Shown here: piece after piece, positions 35,849-41,242 of the stretch | How positions within the stretch are numbered: position 1 is the first letter of the stretch | How the letters are laid out: the number at the start of each line of letters is the position of its first letter | Assembly (NCBI GenBank): GCA_024233495.1 | Contig: JACKPM010000003.1 | Span: forward strand, 231,331 to 295,330 | Source of the DNA: Chlamydiales bacterium | GTDB lineage: Bacteria; Chlamydiota; Chlamydiia; Chlamydiales; JAAKFR01 | DNA length: 64,000 nt | Reading direction: 5' to 3' | Position numbers and translations under genes: made by a program | Notes under the pieces: model-generated | What the model saw: only the letters and a program-made list of their open reading frames with translations | The model's database searches: none | What the model was told of the DNA's origin: nothing

Positions 35849-37024
35849 ATGAGCAAGTTAGATGCCACCCGCGTTCTTATGCTAGGGCACGCCGCTGCAC
35901 ACCTCGGGGGAGAGAGCATTCAGGTAAAAAAATTCTCCTCCCTCCTCAACGGGCAAATTGAAGAGGTAATCGACCTCTTCCAGCTCTTTGGAGAGGAGTA
36001 TGAGCCGCTCGCCAAACTCAATTACGCCCTAGCAGAGAGTGGGGAACCTCCACTTTTTGACGTGGAGCGTGCACGTTCTATCTGCCAAAAGCTCGACGAA
36101 AGAAGTTCTCACAATCTATTAATGCTCAGCTTCTCTTCAAGTCTTGCAGCCCTTTTGGCAACAGGAATTCAGAAAAAACGGCGCCTCATTTCTAAATTCT
36201 ATGTCCACCACCCCTCTGAGAAAGTCTTCTCTGCGCTCTATGAACCGGTCAACCTCTTACTCACTGAATCTTTGCTTGGTAACTTACGCGGCGCAGCCTA
36301 CGGCATACCTGAATCAAAATTGCTCTACTTTCCTCACCACTACCCTGAGATTGAGCTGCCCGAAAAGGCGCCCACAAAAGAAGTTGTGATTGGCGTCATC
36401 TCCAGGTTTGAGCGGGGGAAAAACTGTGAATGCGCACTTGAGGTGTGCCGCCGTCTTGTAGAGCGCGGCTTGAGCCTAAAACTCATCTTAATGGGGGATT
36501 TTGCAACGCACACTTCTGATCCCACCTACCAAGAGAACTTTGCAAGAATGCTCGCTGCTTATGAAGAGGCGCCATGGTTCACATGGGAGAGAGAGGTGGT
36601 GCCATATCCTGCCGCTTTACACCACTACAACCGCTTTGACTTATGCTTGCAGCTTTCCGGTTCTGAGGCTGGAAGTAACATCATCGTCGAGCTTCTAGGG
36701 ATAGGAAAGCCTGTGATCGCCCTTAATGCGAGTACAAATCCCTATCTCTTTTCCGGAGGCGCGCTCCTTGTGGAAAAGGAGCCAAAGATTTATTCAGGGC
36801 AGCTTAACTATGAGATGCCTGACATGGATTTGCTTGAGGGGAGCGTCGAGGCTCTTGTGCAAAGTGGCAAGCTGCGCAAAGAGTGGGGGAAAAAGGGGAA
36901 GGAGCTTGCGCGCAAGCGCTTTCACCGTGATGTGCTGAAAGAGAGAATCCCCCTCCTCTTTGAATCGGACAGGGCAAAAGTACAAAAACTCTATGATCAA
37001 GATAGGAAGGCCTATGGATTCTAG
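35849..37024 (+). CDS. Glycosyltransferase, GT-B fold (family 1/GT4-like)
   Basis: I moved the start to ATG 35849, because the track's 35771 would overlap the divergent gene. An E-x7-E motif lies in SGSEAGSNIIVELLGIGKPVIA. VIGVISRFERGKN resembles the donor-binding half of GT4 enzymes. Confidence 0.75.
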   Translation: MSKLDATRVLMLGHAAAHLGGESIQVKKFSSLLNGQIEEVIDLFQLFGEEYEPLAKLNYALAESGEPPLFDVERARSICQKLDERSSHNLLMLSFSSSLAALLATGIQKKRRLISKFYVHHPSEKVFSALYEPVNLLLTESLLGNLRGAAYGIPESKLLYFPHHYPEIELPEKAPTKEVVIGVISRFERGKNCECALEVCRRLVERGLSLKLILMGDFATHTSDPTYQENFARMLAAYEEAPWFTWEREVVPYPAALHHYNRFDLCLQLSGSEAGSNIIVELLGIGKPVIALNASTNPYLFSGGALLVEKEPKIYSGQLNYEMPDMDLLEGSVEALVQSGKLRKEWGKKGKELARKRFHRDVLKERIPLLFESDRAKVQKLYDQDRKAYGF

Positions 37025-37976
37025 AGTTGCTATAGTAGGTGGGCCACACCTCTCTTTTTTGGATCACATCATTCCGCTTTGTGATCTTCTCGACATGCCG
37101 CTGTACGCTCCTGATGTGTGGGAGTGGACAATGCTTTATCCACATGTGCAAAAGGCGGAGGAGTTAGAAAGCTACGATACCTTCTTCTATGTGGAGCCCT
37201 CTCGTCTGCATGAGAGATGCTTTCAGTTCGGCAACCACTTCTTTGACCAAAAGAGGCGCTCTGTGTGTGGGTTGCATGGTAACTCAAACAAGTGCCGCGA
37301 TGCCTTTTGGGCTGAGCGCTTTCTAGAAGAGGATAGCGTGCTTCTGTATGGCCCTTACATGCAACAATTTTTCGAAGAGAAGGGGGTGTATAGCCGCCTC
37401 AAGAATCCCATTTTCTGCGGCAACTATCGCCTGTGCTATTATGAGAAGTACAAAGAGCACTTTCACATGAAGCTTCCAGGTGAGGGAAAAAAGATTTTGT
37501 ATGCTCCCACATGGAGCTTTGACGGTGCAACAGACAACTCTCCTTTCTTCACATGCTATCGCCGCCTTCTTGACCACGTCCCTTCTGGTTTCACTGTTTT
37601 AGTGAAGCTTCATCCCTATATGTACCGCCTCCACCCTCAAGAAGTTCAGCGGTTAATTGAAAAGTATGTCGATAACCCTCGCGTCTATTTCTTAGAAGAG
37701 ACACCCCTTGTCTATCCCATTTTGGATCAGATAGATATTTACATAGGAGATTACTCCTCAGTGGGCTATGATTTCTTGAGTTTTGATCGCCCTCTCTTTT
37801 TTTGGAGCGAAAACGTCGATCCACATCTATTGGAATGTGGGCACAAGATTCAAGAGGGAGAGATTTTCTCGCAGCTTGAGAAAGAGGGAAAGAGTGAGAA
37901 GAGGCAAGAGCTCTATCACCACTGTTTTGCCAACGTGGAGGACCTAGGTGAAAGGTTGCGGCATTGTTGTTCATGA
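37014..37976 (+). CDS. CDP-glycerol glycerophosphotransferase family protein (TagB/TagF-like), copy 1
   Basis: ATG 37014 overlaps the upstream stop by 11 nt. Family blocks present: KKILYAPTWS, VKLHPYMY and IYIGDYSSVGYDFLSFDRPLFF. Confidence 0.75.
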   Translation: MDSRVAIVGGPHLSFLDHIIPLCDLLDMPLYAPDVWEWTMLYPHVQKAEELESYDTFFYVEPSRLHERCFQFGNHFFDQKRRSVCGLHGNSNKCRDAFWAERFLEEDSVLLYGPYMQQFFEEKGVYSRLKNPIFCGNYRLCYYEKYKEHFHMKLPGEGKKILYAPTWSFDGATDNSPFFTCYRRLLDHVPSGFTVLVKLHPYMYRLHPQEVQRLIEKYVDNPRVYFLEETPLVYPILDQIDIYIGDYSSVGYDFLSFDRPLFFWSENVDPHLLECGHKIQEGEIFSQLEKEGKSEKRQELYHHCFANVEDLGERLRHCCS

Positions 37977-39652: not shown

Positions 39653-40392
39653 TTACCCCAACAGAAGAGCGTCCCACCTTTCTTCTCTCTCTTTATCAAG
39701 TGCTCTTGAGGCAAGAGAGCGGTGATTGGGAGTGGTTGATCTATGACTCTTCTCTTCGTCCGTGCAAAGAGCTTCTTCAGTACAATGATCCGCGCATTCA
39801 CTACATCCATGACCTTGACCGAAAGACTATTGGAGAGCGGCGCAATCTCCTTGTACAAAAAGCAAAGGGGGAGATCATCGTTCACTTTGATGACGATGAC
39901 TACTACGCGCCTCACTATCTTTCGACGATAAAAGAGGCGCTCAAAAAAGATGATTTTTTCCACATCCATTCATGGTTTGCCTACCACGCTGCCTCTCGGC
40001 AATTTTTCTATTGGGATAGCCAGGAGAAGACCAAAAGTCGCATGGCACTCAACCCCCTTGTAGGCGCACGTGTGCGAGAGATTGACTTTGGGCAAGAGGC
40101 GGCAGAGAATATGATCAAGCACGGCTATGGTTTTACTTTTGCCTATAGAAAGTATTTGGCAGAAAAATACCCCTTTCCTGCTGTTGATCTTGGTGAGGAT
40201 GAAAACTTTTTCAATCGCATTCCAAAAGAGAAAGTGGTCTCGATTGCGGATCGTGAGGGGCTTGCCCTTAAGGTGATTCACGACACCAACGTATCGTGCA
40301 TTTTTCCGCAGTTCATGATTCCCCGTTTTATGATTAAAACCGCCTTCCCCCACCTGGCTGCCCATGAAGATCGCTATCTTAGTCGGGGATAA
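39637..40392 (+). CDS. Glycosyltransferase family 2
   Basis: 251 aa with a 16-nt overlap. It has the GT-A start LSVITPTEERPTFL and an acidic DxD region, IIVHFDDDDYYAPHYL. Confidence 0.8.
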   Translation: MSLSVITPTEERPTFLLSLYQVLLRQESGDWEWLIYDSSLRPCKELLQYNDPRIHYIHDLDRKTIGERRNLLVQKAKGEIIVHFDDDDYYAPHYLSTIKEALKKDDFFHIHSWFAYHAASRQFFYWDSQEKTKSRMALNPLVGARVREIDFGQEAAENMIKHGYGFTFAYRKYLAEKYPFPAVDLGEDENFFNRIPKEKVVSIADREGLALKVIHDTNVSCIFPQFMIPRFMIKTAFPHLAAHEDRYLSRG

Positions 40393-41242
40393 CCCCTACG
40401 GTACGACGCCCATTTTTGCGAAAGGGCTTGCAAAAGCGTTGCGTCGCCTCGATGTGGATGTGGATCTTCACTATGTAGGCGATGGTCACTTTTTCCATGC
40501 CTTCTATGACATGCTCGCTGACCCCCCCGATCTTACCTTCTCTTTTTCTGACATTCGGGGTTTGAATTGGGGTATTCCTCACTTCACCTTTGCACTCGAC
40601 CCCGTCTATTTTTACCGCCACCAAAAAGGGATTTTAACCTGTGTGGATGAGGAAGATGCAAAGCGAGCCGGCATTCCTTTTCTTCCGCATGCTTATGACC
40701 CTATGGAGGTTGAAGAAAAAGAGCGCATTTACGATACAGTCTTTTTTGGTAGCTGCTTCGAGCTCGATTTTCCTGCGCATATTGTCAAGAAGGGGGAGCG
40801 CGTTTTGCATGGAGAGTTGGCCGAGTGGGATGACGATTTTCTGCTTGTTGATCGCTATGTGCGTGCAGTGGACCGCATCAAATTGTGCGAGCAGTTTGAA
40901 AATCTAACTATTTGGGGAGATGGCACTTGGAAAAAATATATTCCTCACGCTAAAATTCTTCCGCCTATTCCGTTTGAGGAAACCCTAAAAGTGATGAGTG
41001 AGGCAAAGTGCGTGCTCAATAGCTCTCCTCGCATACGGAATGGATTACATGAGCGCATCCTCTATGCTGCCCACTTGGGTTGCCGCGTCGTCACTGCTGA
41101 AAATGCGTGGACAACAGGCTTTCCACAAGGGGAATGGGAGAAGGCGAAAGAGTGCTCCTCACAGGTGAAGGGAGAGCATACTTGGGATGTGCGCGCAAAA
41201 CAGATCATGGAGGTCATAAATGGCATCACCAGTAGAGGGTAG
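40364..41242 (+). CDS. CgeB-like (Glyco_trans_1_2-type) glycosyltransferase
   Basis: 292 aa with a 29-nt overlap. The C-terminal block VLNSSPRIRNGLHERILYAAHLGCRVVT resembles the CgeB/DUF3880 GT-B C-terminal half. Confidence 0.55.
   Translation: MKIAILVGDNPYGTTPIFAKGLAKALRRLDVDVDLHYVGDGHFFHAFYDMLADPPDLTFSFSDIRGLNWGIPHFTFALDPVYFYRHQKGILTCVDEEDAKRAGIPFLPHAYDPMEVEEKERIYDTVFFGSCFELDFPAHIVKKGERVLHGELAEWDDDFLLVDRYVRAVDRIKLCEQFENLTIWGDGTWKKYIPHAKILPPIPFEETLKVMSEAKCVLNSSPRIRNGLHERILYAAHLGCRVVTAENAWTTGFPQGEWEKAKECSSQVKGEHTWDVRAKQIMEVINGITSRG

Follow-up and report, generated by a model that had tools for sequence, protein, structure and literature searches.

In Cps3D, Cps7D, Bcs3, TagF and TarL, a TagF-like module is joined with glycosyltransferase modules for phosphodiester glycans, within multi-domain proteins of 560–1170 aa that also carry oligomerisation, TPR or membrane-binding parts, and genes for Kps export, KpsC/KpsS and donor synthesis share the clusters of the TagF-like capsule polymerases. 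Polymerases of the TagF/TarL family have an additional N-terminal domain, and their catalytic regions have described roles for histidines H444 and H584 of TagF and H300 and H433 of TarL, with glycerol bound by a ‘PL’ motif in TagF and ribitol by a ‘GAF’ motif in TarL (PMC10901376). Among the PF04464 enzymes with a GT-B fold and no polymerase N-terminal domain (TagB, TarF and Cps7A), Cps7A adds one glycerol-3-phosphate to the 7-OH of a terminal Kdo in a Gram-negative bacterium, and the App7 capsule cluster encodes the CDP-glycerol synthase Cps7B (PMC11666461). In the Bacillus subtilis spore crust, cgeB, spsA and spsB supply a CgeB-like PF13524 protein, a small GT2 and a TagB/SpsB-family protein that act on a surface layer (PMC7439481, PMC13577073). 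LPS core (waa-type) clusters encode groups of GT-B and GT-A enzymes, either soluble or peripheral, that extend Kdo-lipid A at the cytoplasmic face, have no dedicated primer or exporter and vary in content between lineages.

The locus described here occupies positions 35849-41242 of the window, by which we mean the whole 64,000-nucleotide stretch of chlamydial DNA that was analysed, and consists of six co-oriented transferase genes, g1–g6, preceded by a divergent gene for a Yip1-family membrane protein whose start lies 11 nt from that of g1 (Table 1). Each transferase gene overlaps the next, by 11, 29, 11, 16 and 29 nt in order, exactly as an earlier sequence-only reading had it, and genes called independently on Logan contigs with identical DNA have the same boundaries. 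At four of the five junctions a purine-rich Shine-Dalgarno-like stretch lies within the upstream gene, 5–9 nt ahead of the downstream start; for g3, GGAGGA stands 6 nt ahead of the GTG and the resulting N-terminus aligns with homologues. A search for promoters and terminators at the cluster gave nothing above chance. GC and GC3 equal those of the neighbouring genes, giving no sign of recent import. The Yip1 protein and five of the six transferases (g1, g2, g3, g5 and g6) score above the Pfam gathering cut-offs, and g4, whose window copy has no Pfam match of its own, is placed by orthologues of 310–370 aa in other genomes that match PF13524. The proposed families (GT4, two PF04464, GT2 and two CgeB-like proteins) thus held, as did the motifs quoted for them, all of which occur in the translations, LYAPTWS and GDYSS..YDF being those of g2/g3. 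The six proteins show neither a convincing transmembrane segment nor a signal peptide, and the Yip1 protein has 45 hydrophobic 19-residue windows above 1.6. Elsewhere the window also carries an Hc1 gene, a SET-domain gene and two F-box genes, which support a chlamydial source for the DNA.

Table 1. Genes of the transferase cluster and its divergent partner, with Pfam scores against gathering cut-offs
Gene	Product	Position	Strand	Length (aa)	Start codon	Family evidence
Yip1	Yip1-family polytopic membrane protein	35238..35837	-	199		PF04893, 52.3 bits vs 28.6
g1	GT4-type (GT-B) glycosyltransferase	35849-37024	+	391	ATG	PF00534, 34.9 bits vs 26.4
g2	Minimal TagB/TagF-fold transferase	37014-37976	+	320		PF04464, 49.7 bits vs 22.1
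g3	Second TagB/TagF-fold transferase	37948-38904	+	318	GTG	PF04464, 52.0 bits vs 22.1
g4	Short divergent CgeB-like GT-B protein	38894-39652	+	252		Longer orthologues match PF13524
g5	Small soluble GT2 (GT-A) glycosyltransferase	39637-40392	+	251		PF00535, 48.6 bits vs 23.3
g6	Compact CgeB-like GT-B glycosyltransferase	40364-41242	+	292		PF13524, 29.6 bits vs 25

The cluster and its divergent Yip1 gene are syntenic in 16 other chlamydial genomes, and because gene order is kept there at 30–62% protein identity, we take all six genes to be real. This order persists across genomes of widely differing size and environmental source, and in three related clusters that we checked the genes overlap by 4–26 nt, with the Yip1 start near the GT4 start, which bears out the earlier proposal of a single functional unit. 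The same proposal had treated the Yip1-like gene as merely the only neighbour: the divergent membrane protein is indeed there, but its gene lies directly upstream in all related clusters except two, both of which are ended upstream by a contig edge, and it is a conserved part of the cluster unit. The TagF-like, g4-like and g6-like genes are constant across clusters, whereas the GT4 gene is missing from two (L014 and L018) and the GT2 gene is absent or replaced in three (L006, L013 and L019), a pattern expected for a lineage-variable surface glycan. In many genomes the cluster contains one TagF-like gene only. The g4 orthologue always directly follows a TagF-like gene, and in L010 and L016 such a pair is found away from the cluster as well.

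The products of g2 and g3 are 37% identical, and g3 is an old paralogue of g2. The AlphaFold2 model of g2 (pLDDT 92.5) found TagF (3L7J, E 2.8e-11) as its best Foldseek match, followed by Bcs3, TarL and Cps3D, which are also among the best sequence and profile matches. Like TagB, TarF and Cps7A, both proteins have one invariant histidine per lobe and K-x-H-P in the nucleotide lobe: g2 carries HGNSNK (His88) and KLHP (His200), and g3 HGHSDK and KLHP. Both His88-Gly-x3-Lys93 and Lys198-x-His200 are invariant in an alignment of 33 sequences, and 140 of 142 chlamydial sequences carry the first motif, H-G-x3-K. For the second histidine there is a direct alignment with the histidine region of TarL/TagF, HMMER having paired KLHPY of g2 with KMHPF of TarL. 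No sequence similarity between the N-terminal lobe of g2/g3 and a solved structure of the TagF family could be detected. The H-G-x3-K spacing is like that of the TagF loop, which reads W-H-G-T-P-L-K, and we infer from this spacing, the invariance and the overall fold match, rather than from residue-level superposition, that His88 is equivalent to H444 of TagF. In the chlamydial proteins the polyol-pocket motif is H-G-N-[S/P]-D-K, with no Trp before the histidine and with N-[S/P]-D in place of PL, GAF, GSL or GAL, so a CDP-glycerol or CDP-ribitol donor is not implied and these enzymes probably handle their donor differently from TagF and TarL. The nucleotide-binding lobe is of the type seen with cytidine-nucleotide donors, and we consider it probable that the enzymes use such a donor and are active as phospho- or ulosonate transferases.

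The TagF-like proteins form a subfamily of their own, about 320–370 aa long and almost confined to chlamydiae; a neighbour-joining tree that carries no support values lists g2-type and g3-type sequences in separate blocks of its leaf order. Scores against the NCBIfam models for TarL, TarF and TarB are 13–29 bits, compared with cut-offs of 500–1000. Of 33 chlamydial TagF-like proteins, 7 weakly match the KpsC/KpsS Kdo-transferase family and one matches a polysialyltransferase family. With 320 and 318 aa, g2 and g3 do not exceed the length of a single GT-B domain and are near the size of TagB and TarF, whose NCBIfam models have lengths of 362 and 388, and the extra N-terminal polymerase domain is absent.

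The E-x7-E motif of g1 is EAGSNIIVE, and no close relative of this protein was found in NCBIfam or the PDB. g5 contains a DxD motif (DDDD, within DDDDYY) and weakly matches WcaA, PglI and TuaG. g6 has conserved LNSSPR and HER motifs, its homologues with an organism name are all chlamydial, and its model (pLDDT 94.0) best matches GT-B enzymes of the SenB, ManT, WaaG and PimA type (E 5e-6 to 3e-4). g4 resembles g6 only weakly (BLASTP, 90 aa aligned at E 3e-5), and its window copy shares a deletion of about 50–70 aa with those of L051 and L021.

That these enzymes together make one glycoconjugate is very likely. As for its nature, we tentatively favour a cytoplasmic assembly line that puts sugars and phosphodiester-linked (or CMP-donated) groups on an existing lipid-linked acceptor. 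The enzymes would work one after another on the inner side of the cytoplasmic membrane, where the GT4, the GT2 and the two CgeB-like enzymes would add a few sugars and g2 and g3 would transfer one or two groups from a donor activated with CDP or CMP. In this g2 and g3 would be single-addition transferases, comparable to TagB, TarF or Cps7A, and not polymerases. Single additions seem to us somewhat the better expectation than a long polymer. The acceptor may be a lipid or LPS core, a possibility that we hold with some reserve; the most plausible candidates would be the Kdo-lipid A core of the lipooligosaccharide that chlamydiae make, or some other glycolipid, with Cps7A as precedent for a PF04464 enzyme acting on terminal Kdo. 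The finished lipid-linked glycan would exit by housekeeping MsbA/Lpt-type export encoded elsewhere, and Yip1 might anchor or assist the enzyme complex; we count the combination of six soluble transferases and one polytopic membrane protein in favour of this arrangement. Like LPS core clusters, g1–g6 come without a dedicated primer or exporter and with lineage-variable content, and WaaG, an LPS core enzyme, is among the g6 structural matches. In contrast to such clusters, there is no linked heptosyltransferase (GT9), kinase or lipid A/Kdo gene, and no lpx, waaA, kdsB or msbA lies near the cluster. TagF-fold and CgeB-like enzymes are not standard LPS core enzymes, and the link of the cluster to LPS is one that we infer. 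CgeB, the sole studied relative of g4 and g6, is itself a proposed protein glycosylator (PMC13577073), which also speaks against a lipid-linked acceptor.

The sequence-only reading had headlined the cluster as a teichoic-acid- or capsule-like polymer module, a claim that in this form lacks support. In such a scheme a poly(glycosyl-polyol-phosphate) of the teichoic-acid (WTA type II) or capsule kind would be built by TagF-like enzymes alternating with g4 and g6, the GT4 and GT2 would make a linker or side branches, and priming, donor synthesis and export would be encoded elsewhere in the genome. PF04464 membership, the TagF fold and the matches to Bcs3, TarL and Cps3D agree with this, and two TagF-like paralogues could serve as primer and polymerase. 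The constant adjacency of TagF-like and g4-like genes, inside and outside the cluster, echoes the pairs of glycosyltransferase and TagF-like domains in capsule polymerases (PMC5974469, PMC11666461), here as unfused, separate small proteins, so that the enzymes may yet polymerise. Against it, g2 and g3 lack both the N-terminal domain of TagF/TarL polymerases (PMC10901376) and the TPR domain needed by capsule polymerases (PMC11666461), their pocket motif is unlike both the glycerol and the ribitol type, and many genomes have a single TagF-like gene in the cluster. Partner genes are missing as well. Among the window ORFs scanned (gene-like ORFs of at least 150 aa, minus a giant ORF at 10222-20316, plus three shorter cluster-flanking ORFs), we found no cytidylyltransferase, CDP-glycerol synthase, WecA/TagO-type priming enzyme, or ABC or Wzx exporter, as the sequence-only reading had noted, and no TagO/TagA/TagD/TagGH, TarIJ, KpsMT/ED/CS or LCP gene; nor did these gene types appear among the cluster genes and few variable neighbours scanned in related loci. 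The sole transporters in the window scan, a Na:alanine symporter and an MFS protein, lie more than 25 kb from the cluster. Taken together, we regard such a polymer as unlikely.

Equally improbable in our estimate is cytoplasmic protein O-glycosylation, in which a CgeB-like enzyme would start a glycan on Ser/Thr of a chlamydial surface or developmental-stage protein, other transferases would extend it, and the TagB-like enzymes would place at its end a CMP-activated ulosonic acid (Kdo or nonulosonic) or a phospho-substituent, much as with CgeB, SpsA and SpsB of the Bacillus spore crust or with the O-glycan of Tannerella. CgeB of B. subtilis is proposed to glycosylate Thr112 of CgeA with a UDP-sugar (PMC13577073), SpsA is a GT2, and SpsB, although it has no assigned biochemical activity, is a TagB-domain protein that the spore surface requires to mature (PMC7439481). 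In Tannerella, the terminal Pse/Leg derivative of the protein O-glycan genetically requires TagB-domain proteins (PMC5420450), and the weak KpsC/KpsS and polysialyltransferase-family matches of the TagF-like proteins point the same way. Such a pathway needs no lipid primer or glycan exporter, fitting their absence. However, the likeness to the spore crust is at family level only, g4 and g6 resembling CgeB no further than Pfam family membership, and the chlamydial cluster, in a Gram-negative intracellular bacterium, has no CgeA-like acceptor and no sps/legionaminic acid sugar-nucleotide genes and has a Yip1 partner instead. No candidate acceptor gene is conserved with the cluster, since the 790-aa and 815-aa proteins encoded upstream do not adjoin it in other genomes, and the constant polytopic membrane partner fits membrane-associated assembly better.

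Legionella and clostridial glycosyltransferase toxins modify host targets, and the window is rich in eukaryote-directed genes (the F-box and SET-domain proteins), but secretion of some or all of these soluble transferases into the host cell to modify its glycans, lipids or proteins is very improbable, given that a coupled six-gene operon of fixed order across diverse genomes is typical of a biosynthetic pathway, its constant partner is a bacterial inner-membrane protein, and enzymes of the TagF family depend on a cytidine-nucleotide donor that the bacterium makes.

The earlier interpretation is thus partly supported, with LPS decoration and protein glycosylation at least as likely as a polymer. 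Our literature search found no description of this operon in chlamydiae or of a teichoic-type polymer in them, in agreement with what the sequence-only reading had said of the latter. The cluster with its Yip1 gene is a conserved operon of environmental chlamydiae, newly recognised here, and its product is probably a phosphate-linked surface glycan not described before.

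Six co-oriented transferase genes (g1 to g6) form one conserved operon of soluble enzymes with a membrane partner, which is encoded by a divergent Yip1-domain gene directly beside g1. The open reading frames lie where the sequence-only reading had placed them, each overlapping the next (by 11, 29, 11, 16 and 29 nt in succession), and gene calls on two Logan contigs carrying the same DNA give identical boundaries. At four of the five junctions a purine-rich Shine-Dalgarno-like stretch is found within the upstream gene, 5-9 nt before the downstream start, a finding in favor of translational coupling as well as of the starts chosen. 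The Yip1 and g1 start codons are 11 nt apart (35837/35849), so that the promoter of each gene must lie inside the coding sequence of the other; no promoter-like site was found in this start region, and promoter and terminator signals around the operon were no commoner than in shuffled sequence.

Genes of the transferase operon and its divergent neighbor
Gene	Position	Strand	Assignment
Yip1	35238-35837	-	Yip1-domain membrane protein, PF04893
g1	35849-37024	+	GT4, PF00534
g2	37014-37976	+	TagF-like, PF04464, 320 aa
g3	37948-38904	+	TagF-like, PF04464, GTG start, 318 aa
g4	38894-39652	+	divergent CgeB-like, no Pfam match of its own
g5	39637-40392	+	GT2, PF00535
g6	40364-41242	+	CgeB-like, PF13524

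Two features at the distal end of the operon were considered and set aside. A 95-aa reading frame (orf95, 41220-41507), preceded at 7 nt by a GGAGG Shine-Dalgarno sequence, shares 23 nt with the end of g6; it was rejected as a seventh gene because no related locus contains a homologue, and it is probably not a real gene. A terminator-like hairpin (41590-41619; 12 bp, GC-rich, then a T-run) was rejected as the operon terminator because it lies within orf102 (41488-41796, minus strand), which encodes a 102-aa protein with a zinc-ribbon-like C-terminus and is conserved in 11 related loci. The GC and GC3 contents of g1 to g6 match those of the flanking housekeeping genes, and recent horizontal transfer was rejected on this ground.

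A scan of GTDB species-representative genomes returned 337 stretches (stretches, not genomes) that encode relatives of g2. The best 80 of the 337 carry almost only chlamydial depositor labels, with a few labeled Verrucomicrobia or Acidobacteria and some freshwater MAGs that their depositors labeled 'Chlamydia trachomatis'; among the names returned by protein searches there was no cultured species, only MAG names. The whole arrangement recurs in 16 genomes besides the window, at 30-62% protein identity and in the order divergent Yip1, GT4, one or two TagF-like genes, g4-like, GT2 and g6-like, often with an rRNA operon upstream and an ExbB-ExbD-TPR operon downstream. Cluster genes overlap by 4-26 nt in all three related genomes whose called genes were checked, and the Yip1 and GT4 starts are 11 nt apart at the related locus L004, as in the window, 6 nt apart at L006 and 44 nt apart at L003. 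This recurrence, together with the overlaps, upholds the earlier proposal that the compact layout marks a single functional unit. The same proposal had named the Yip1-like gene as the only neighbor: its description as a divergent membrane protein stands, and its standing as a mere neighbor does not, since it is constant across the clusters, as are at least one TagF-like gene (present in one or two copies), the g4-like gene and the g6-like gene. GT4 is absent from the clusters of L014 and L018, and GT2 is absent or replaced in L006, L013 and L019. An IS605 OrfB/TnpB (Cas12f-like) gene occupies the usual GT2 position at L019:3921-5042(-).

In the leaf order of a midpoint-rooted neighbor-joining tree without support values, the TagF-like enzymes of the clusters fall into g2-type and g3-type blocks, and genomes with a single copy retain either the g2-type or the g3-type by this same unsupported order. 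The TagF-like and g4-like (CgeB-like) genes also occur as a pair alone in another context (L010:3945-10336 and L016:6868-12153), preceded by a transketolase gene and an unknown gene of 277-296 aa and, at L010, followed by DsbA/DsbB-like genes. This lone occurrence suggests that the TagF-like and CgeB-like proteins operate as a functional pair that does not depend on the other cluster genes.

The window itself is chlamydial, as indicated by the depositor name for g2, an Hc1 histone H1-like gene (46889-47341), a SET-domain gene (5586-6209, minus strand) and two adjacent F-box genes (2013-3341 and 3305-4654, one with WD40-like matches); the F-box, SET-domain and Hc1 genes are eukaryote-like and typical of chlamydiae. 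Its 23S rRNA gene (23785-27337) is interrupted by a group I intron (25735-26371; Rfam RF00028, 58.2 bits) containing a 148-aa reading frame (25899-26345) with the LAGLIDADG-type motif WIVGFIDGEGCF, likely a homing endonuclease, and the rRNA region of L003 contains a LAGLIDADG reading frame too. Such an intron is a known feature of Simkania negevensis. A giant reading frame of 3364 aa (10222-20316) directly precedes tRNA-His and the rRNA operon, and between the rRNA operon and the cluster are genes for two large paralogous proteins of 790 and 815 aa (30348-32720 and 32794-35241; about 25% identical), which matched nothing in Pfam, NCBIfam or the related loci except identical Logan contigs and may be lineage-specific effectors. 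Downstream, a beta-carbonic anhydrase gene (42136-42753, plus strand; PF00484) sits between ExbD and two small conserved minus-strand reading frames that directly follow ExbD in related genomes, an arrangement suggestive of a local insertion in the region of the ExbB-ExbD-TPR operon.

The two TagF-like proteins g2 and g3 are paralogues (37% identical) that score 49.7 and 52.0 bits against PF04464 (gathering cut-off 22.1), with the match confined to the C-terminal lobe (profile positions 188-297 of 367). All 33 aligned homologues match this family; seven of the 33 also give a weak match to the KpsC/KpsS Kdo-transferase family PF05159 (best E 2.3e-4), and one matches a polysialyltransferase family. 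The public depositor annotation of g2 reads 'CDP-glycerol glycerophosphotransferase family protein [Chlamydiales bacterium]'. Modeled with AlphaFold2 from the 33 homologues (pLDDT 92.5), g2 has TagF as its top Foldseek match (E 2.8e-11, TM 0.62), with Bcs3, TarL and Cps3D also at the top, above UDP-GlcNAc 2-epimerases of generic GT-B type. PDB sequence and profile searches with the TagF-like proteins likewise led to TagF, Bcs3, TarL and Cps3D, via the C-terminal nucleotide-binding lobe only, and profile searches with the N-terminal lobe against solved structures gave chance-level matches only. The C-terminal lobe of g2 and g3 is of the cytidine-nucleotide-binding type.

Within the 33-sequence alignment, His88-Gly89, Lys93, Lys198 and His200 are invariant. 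The KLHPY of g2 is paired by HMMER with TarL KMHPF and that of g3 with TagF RMHYL, and by this alignment the His200 region corresponds to that of the nucleotide-binding-lobe histidine, TagF H584 and TarL H433 (PMC10901376). The catalytic base of the characterized enzymes (TagF H444/TarL H300) sits in a W-H-x loop with a lysine after it, in which the motif 'PL' marks glycerol-phosphate and 'GAF' ribitol-phosphate transferases (PMC10901376). An H-G-N-[S/P]-D-K motif is present in 140 of 142 chlamydial sequences, none of which has a Trp before the histidine; g2 reads HGNSNK and g3 HGHSDK, which puts N-S-N and H-S-D, neither 'PL' nor 'GAF', at the polyol-pocket positions. The TagF loop reads W-H-G-T-P-L-K. 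The H88-G-x3-K93 spacing is the same as in this loop, whereas the residue numbers in the TarL paper (PMC10901376) imply one residue more. His88, with no Trp before it, is a putative counterpart of the TagF catalytic base, an assignment that rests on motif and fold since the N-terminal lobe gave only chance-level matches. The catalytic apparatus of g2 and g3 looks intact and the alcohol-holding pocket appears to differ; with the pocket motif altered, CDP-glycerol or CDP-ribitol should not be assumed as the donor; a CDP-alcohol and a CMP-ulosonic acid are both candidates.

The other TRANSFERASES of the operon, beyond the TagF-like proteins, are g1, g4, g5 and g6. Both g1 (PF00534, 34.9 bits vs 26.4; E-x7-E motif EAGSNIIVE) and g5 (PF00535, 48.6 bits vs 23.3; DxD motif FDDDDYY) are ordinary GT4 and GT2 enzymes without close characterized relatives, and the only useful hit from PDB sequence searches with g1, g5, g6 and the g6 family profile was a weak PglI match for g5. 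The g6 protein matches PF13524 at 29.6 bits (cut-off 25) and is modeled as a compact GT-B fold (pLDDT 94.0) closest to UDP-sugar enzymes such as SenB, a mycobacterial mannosyltransferase, WaaG and PimA; those of its homologues that have an organism name are all chlamydial. The window g4 protein has no match in Pfam. Its orthologues of 335-373 aa match PF13524 in L003 and weakly in L006, according to precomputed listings, and the L016 orthologue reaches 24.7 bits, just below the 25-bit cut-off. It is weakly similar to g6 (E 3e-5), has no HER motif, unlike the g6 group, and shares with L051 and L021 a deletion of about 50-70 aa, and would thus be a divergent, shortened member of a second CgeB-like orthologue group. 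The families first assigned by eye hold for g1, g2, g3, g5 and g6, all above the Pfam cut-offs, and every motif quoted occurs in the translations, but the CgeB-like label of g4 finds no Pfam match in the protein itself. The Yip1 protein matches PF04893 at 52.3 bits (vs 28.6) over 170 of 173 profile positions and is strongly hydrophobic and polytopic; no convincing transmembrane segment was found in g1 to g6.

TagF-like proteins also occur at a second chlamydial locus type (62 loci, within L023-L085), in which a tandem TagF-like pair comes after a FlgN-like gene (PF05130, 30.1 bits, just below the 30.5 cut-off), the whole being flanked at one end by GT4 and mutY and at the other by mreC-aspC (for example L041:9475-12130). 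These paralogues have the HGNSDK motif, as in the cluster enzymes, and form their own blocks, B1 and B2, separate from the cluster enzymes in the unsupported neighbor-joining leaf order. An exhaustive profile search for the subfamily across 1.84 billion representative proteins yielded 432 representatives at E<=1e-30, 1046 at 1e-10 and 8149 at 1e-3, the best 150 matches being short proteins that nearly all match the profile end to end. Scores against the NCBIfam TarL, TarF and TarB models are 13-29 bits, vs cut-offs of 500-1000, and on these comparisons the chlamydial TagF-like proteins form a subfamily of their own, well removed from canonical TagB/TagF proteins.

Pfam scans of the window covered all gene-like reading frames that are 150 aa or longer, apart from the giant one, and three shorter frames beside the cluster. 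Among these frames there was neither a cytidylyltransferase nor a priming enzyme of the WecA/TagO or any other type; TagA, LPS genes and exporters (ABC, Wzx or Kps) were likewise absent, in agreement with the claim made from the sequence that donor-synthesis, priming and exporter genes are missing from the window. A GlpD-like glycerol-3-phosphate dehydrogenase 13 kb off (54671-56257) was discounted as a donor gene, being catabolic. Nor were donor, priming or export genes found among the cluster genes and few variable neighbors scanned at the related loci, where the variable neighbors (L010, L016, L019 and L022) encode only transketolase, DsbA/DsbB, IS605 TnpB and proteins of unknown function. 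Our literature searches, in a searchable literature that is incomplete, found no paper that links either these enzymes or a teichoic-type polymer to chlamydiae, and the Waddlia genome paper makes no mention of LPS or glycosyltransferase; the earlier statement that no such polymer has been described in chlamydiae thus holds for what was searched.

The operon differs from the known TagF-based systems in both gene content and enzyme architecture. The wall-teichoic-acid pathway (TagO-TagA-TagB-TagD-TagF-TagGH-LCP) has linked priming, CDP-polyol and ABC export genes, none of which is among the scanned window frames. Group 2 capsule systems combine multi-domain GT + TagF-like + TPR polymerases with KpsMT/KpsED export and KpsC/KpsS genes, whereas g2 and g3 are single-domain proteins and the window frames scanned include no Kps gene. 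Polymerases of PF04464 carry an additional N-terminal domain beside the GT-B fold (PMC10901376). Solved TagF has 729 aa and TarL 583 aa, vs 320 aa for g2 and 318 aa for g3, whose relatives of about 320-380 aa match the profile end to end; g2 and g3 therefore lack the N-terminal domain present in the wall-teichoic-acid polymerases TagF, TarL and TarK, and are similar in size to the TagB/TarF single-addition enzymes (NCBIfam models of 362 and 388 positions). With the polymerase domain, the PL/GAF motif and linked wall-teichoic-acid or Kps genes all absent in the window, the sequence-only reading of a teichoic-acid/capsule-like polymer module is not sustained. A teichoic-type polymer could still be made by alternating TagF-like and GT-B partners, as in fused capsule polymerases, and the constant adjacency of TagF-like and g4-like genes fits this; given the missing polymerase domain, however, we consider it unlikely.

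Protein O-glycosylation by the operon enzymes seems to us similarly improbable, although there are precedents: CgeB is proposed to glycosylate CgeA (PMC13577073), SpsB is a TagB-domain protein of a spore-crust glycosylation set (PMC7439481), and the Tannerella O-glycan genetically needs TagB-domain proteins to add CMP-activated nonulosonic acid (PMC5420450). That these soluble transferases are secreted effectors is unlikely.

The reading best supported by these observations is that the operon would act as an assembly line at the cytoplasmic face of the membrane, extending an acceptor made elsewhere, with the product leaving by housekeeping export, which would explain why no primer or exporter is linked to it. 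The most economical acceptor in a chlamydia would be the Kdo-lipid A core, with a direct precedent in Cps7A, a PF04464 enzyme transferring one glycerol-3-phosphate to the 7-OH of a terminal Kdo (PMC11666461). The small size of g2 and g3 argues that they, too, would make single additions, and the variation in GT4, GT2 and TagF-like copies between lineages is as expected of a variable surface oligosaccharide. At the family level the enzymes belong to PF04464, GT4, GT2 and PF13524, as public annotation already says for g2. Three aspects have no counterpart in any characterized system: that minimal TagF-fold enzymes are combined with CgeB-like GT-B enzymes and a Yip1 membrane protein, that genes for primer, donor and export are not linked to them, and that the pocket motif is specific to the subfamily.

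We tentatively entertain, as a possibility on the doubtful side, an ancient TagF-fold family of the environmental chlamydiae's own that uses a different cytidine-activated donor to build an envelope glycoconjugate new to the phylum, with Yip1 as partner. Such a family would comprise at least three paralogous lineages, namely the operon lineage and the tandem pair that the majority of the other sampled chlamydial genomes retain between mutY and mreC. The donor pocket of this family, H-G-N-[S/P]-D-K, would be unlike that of any characterized glycerol- or ribitol-phosphate transferase, and candidate donors would include CMP-Kdo, a further CMP-ulosonic acid and a CDP-amino-alcohol. The Yip1-family protein would then represent a new kind of membrane partner in glycan assembly or translocation.

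The TagF fold is being exploited to synthesize vaccine antigens enzymatically and has been discussed as a target for antibiotics, and the altered donor-pocket motif could widen its known substrate range; the operon is moderately interesting now and would become more so if its donor or product proves unusual. Chlamydial envelopes are described as possessing a truncated, Kdo-only LPS and little peptidoglycan, and we know of no other glycopolymer described for them. The TagF-like family at large is found throughout environmental chlamydiae, and together with the conserved operon it predicts an additional phosphodiester- or ulosonate-containing glycoconjugate in the phylum, which, if true, would affect host recognition, the surface properties of the developmental forms and serology.
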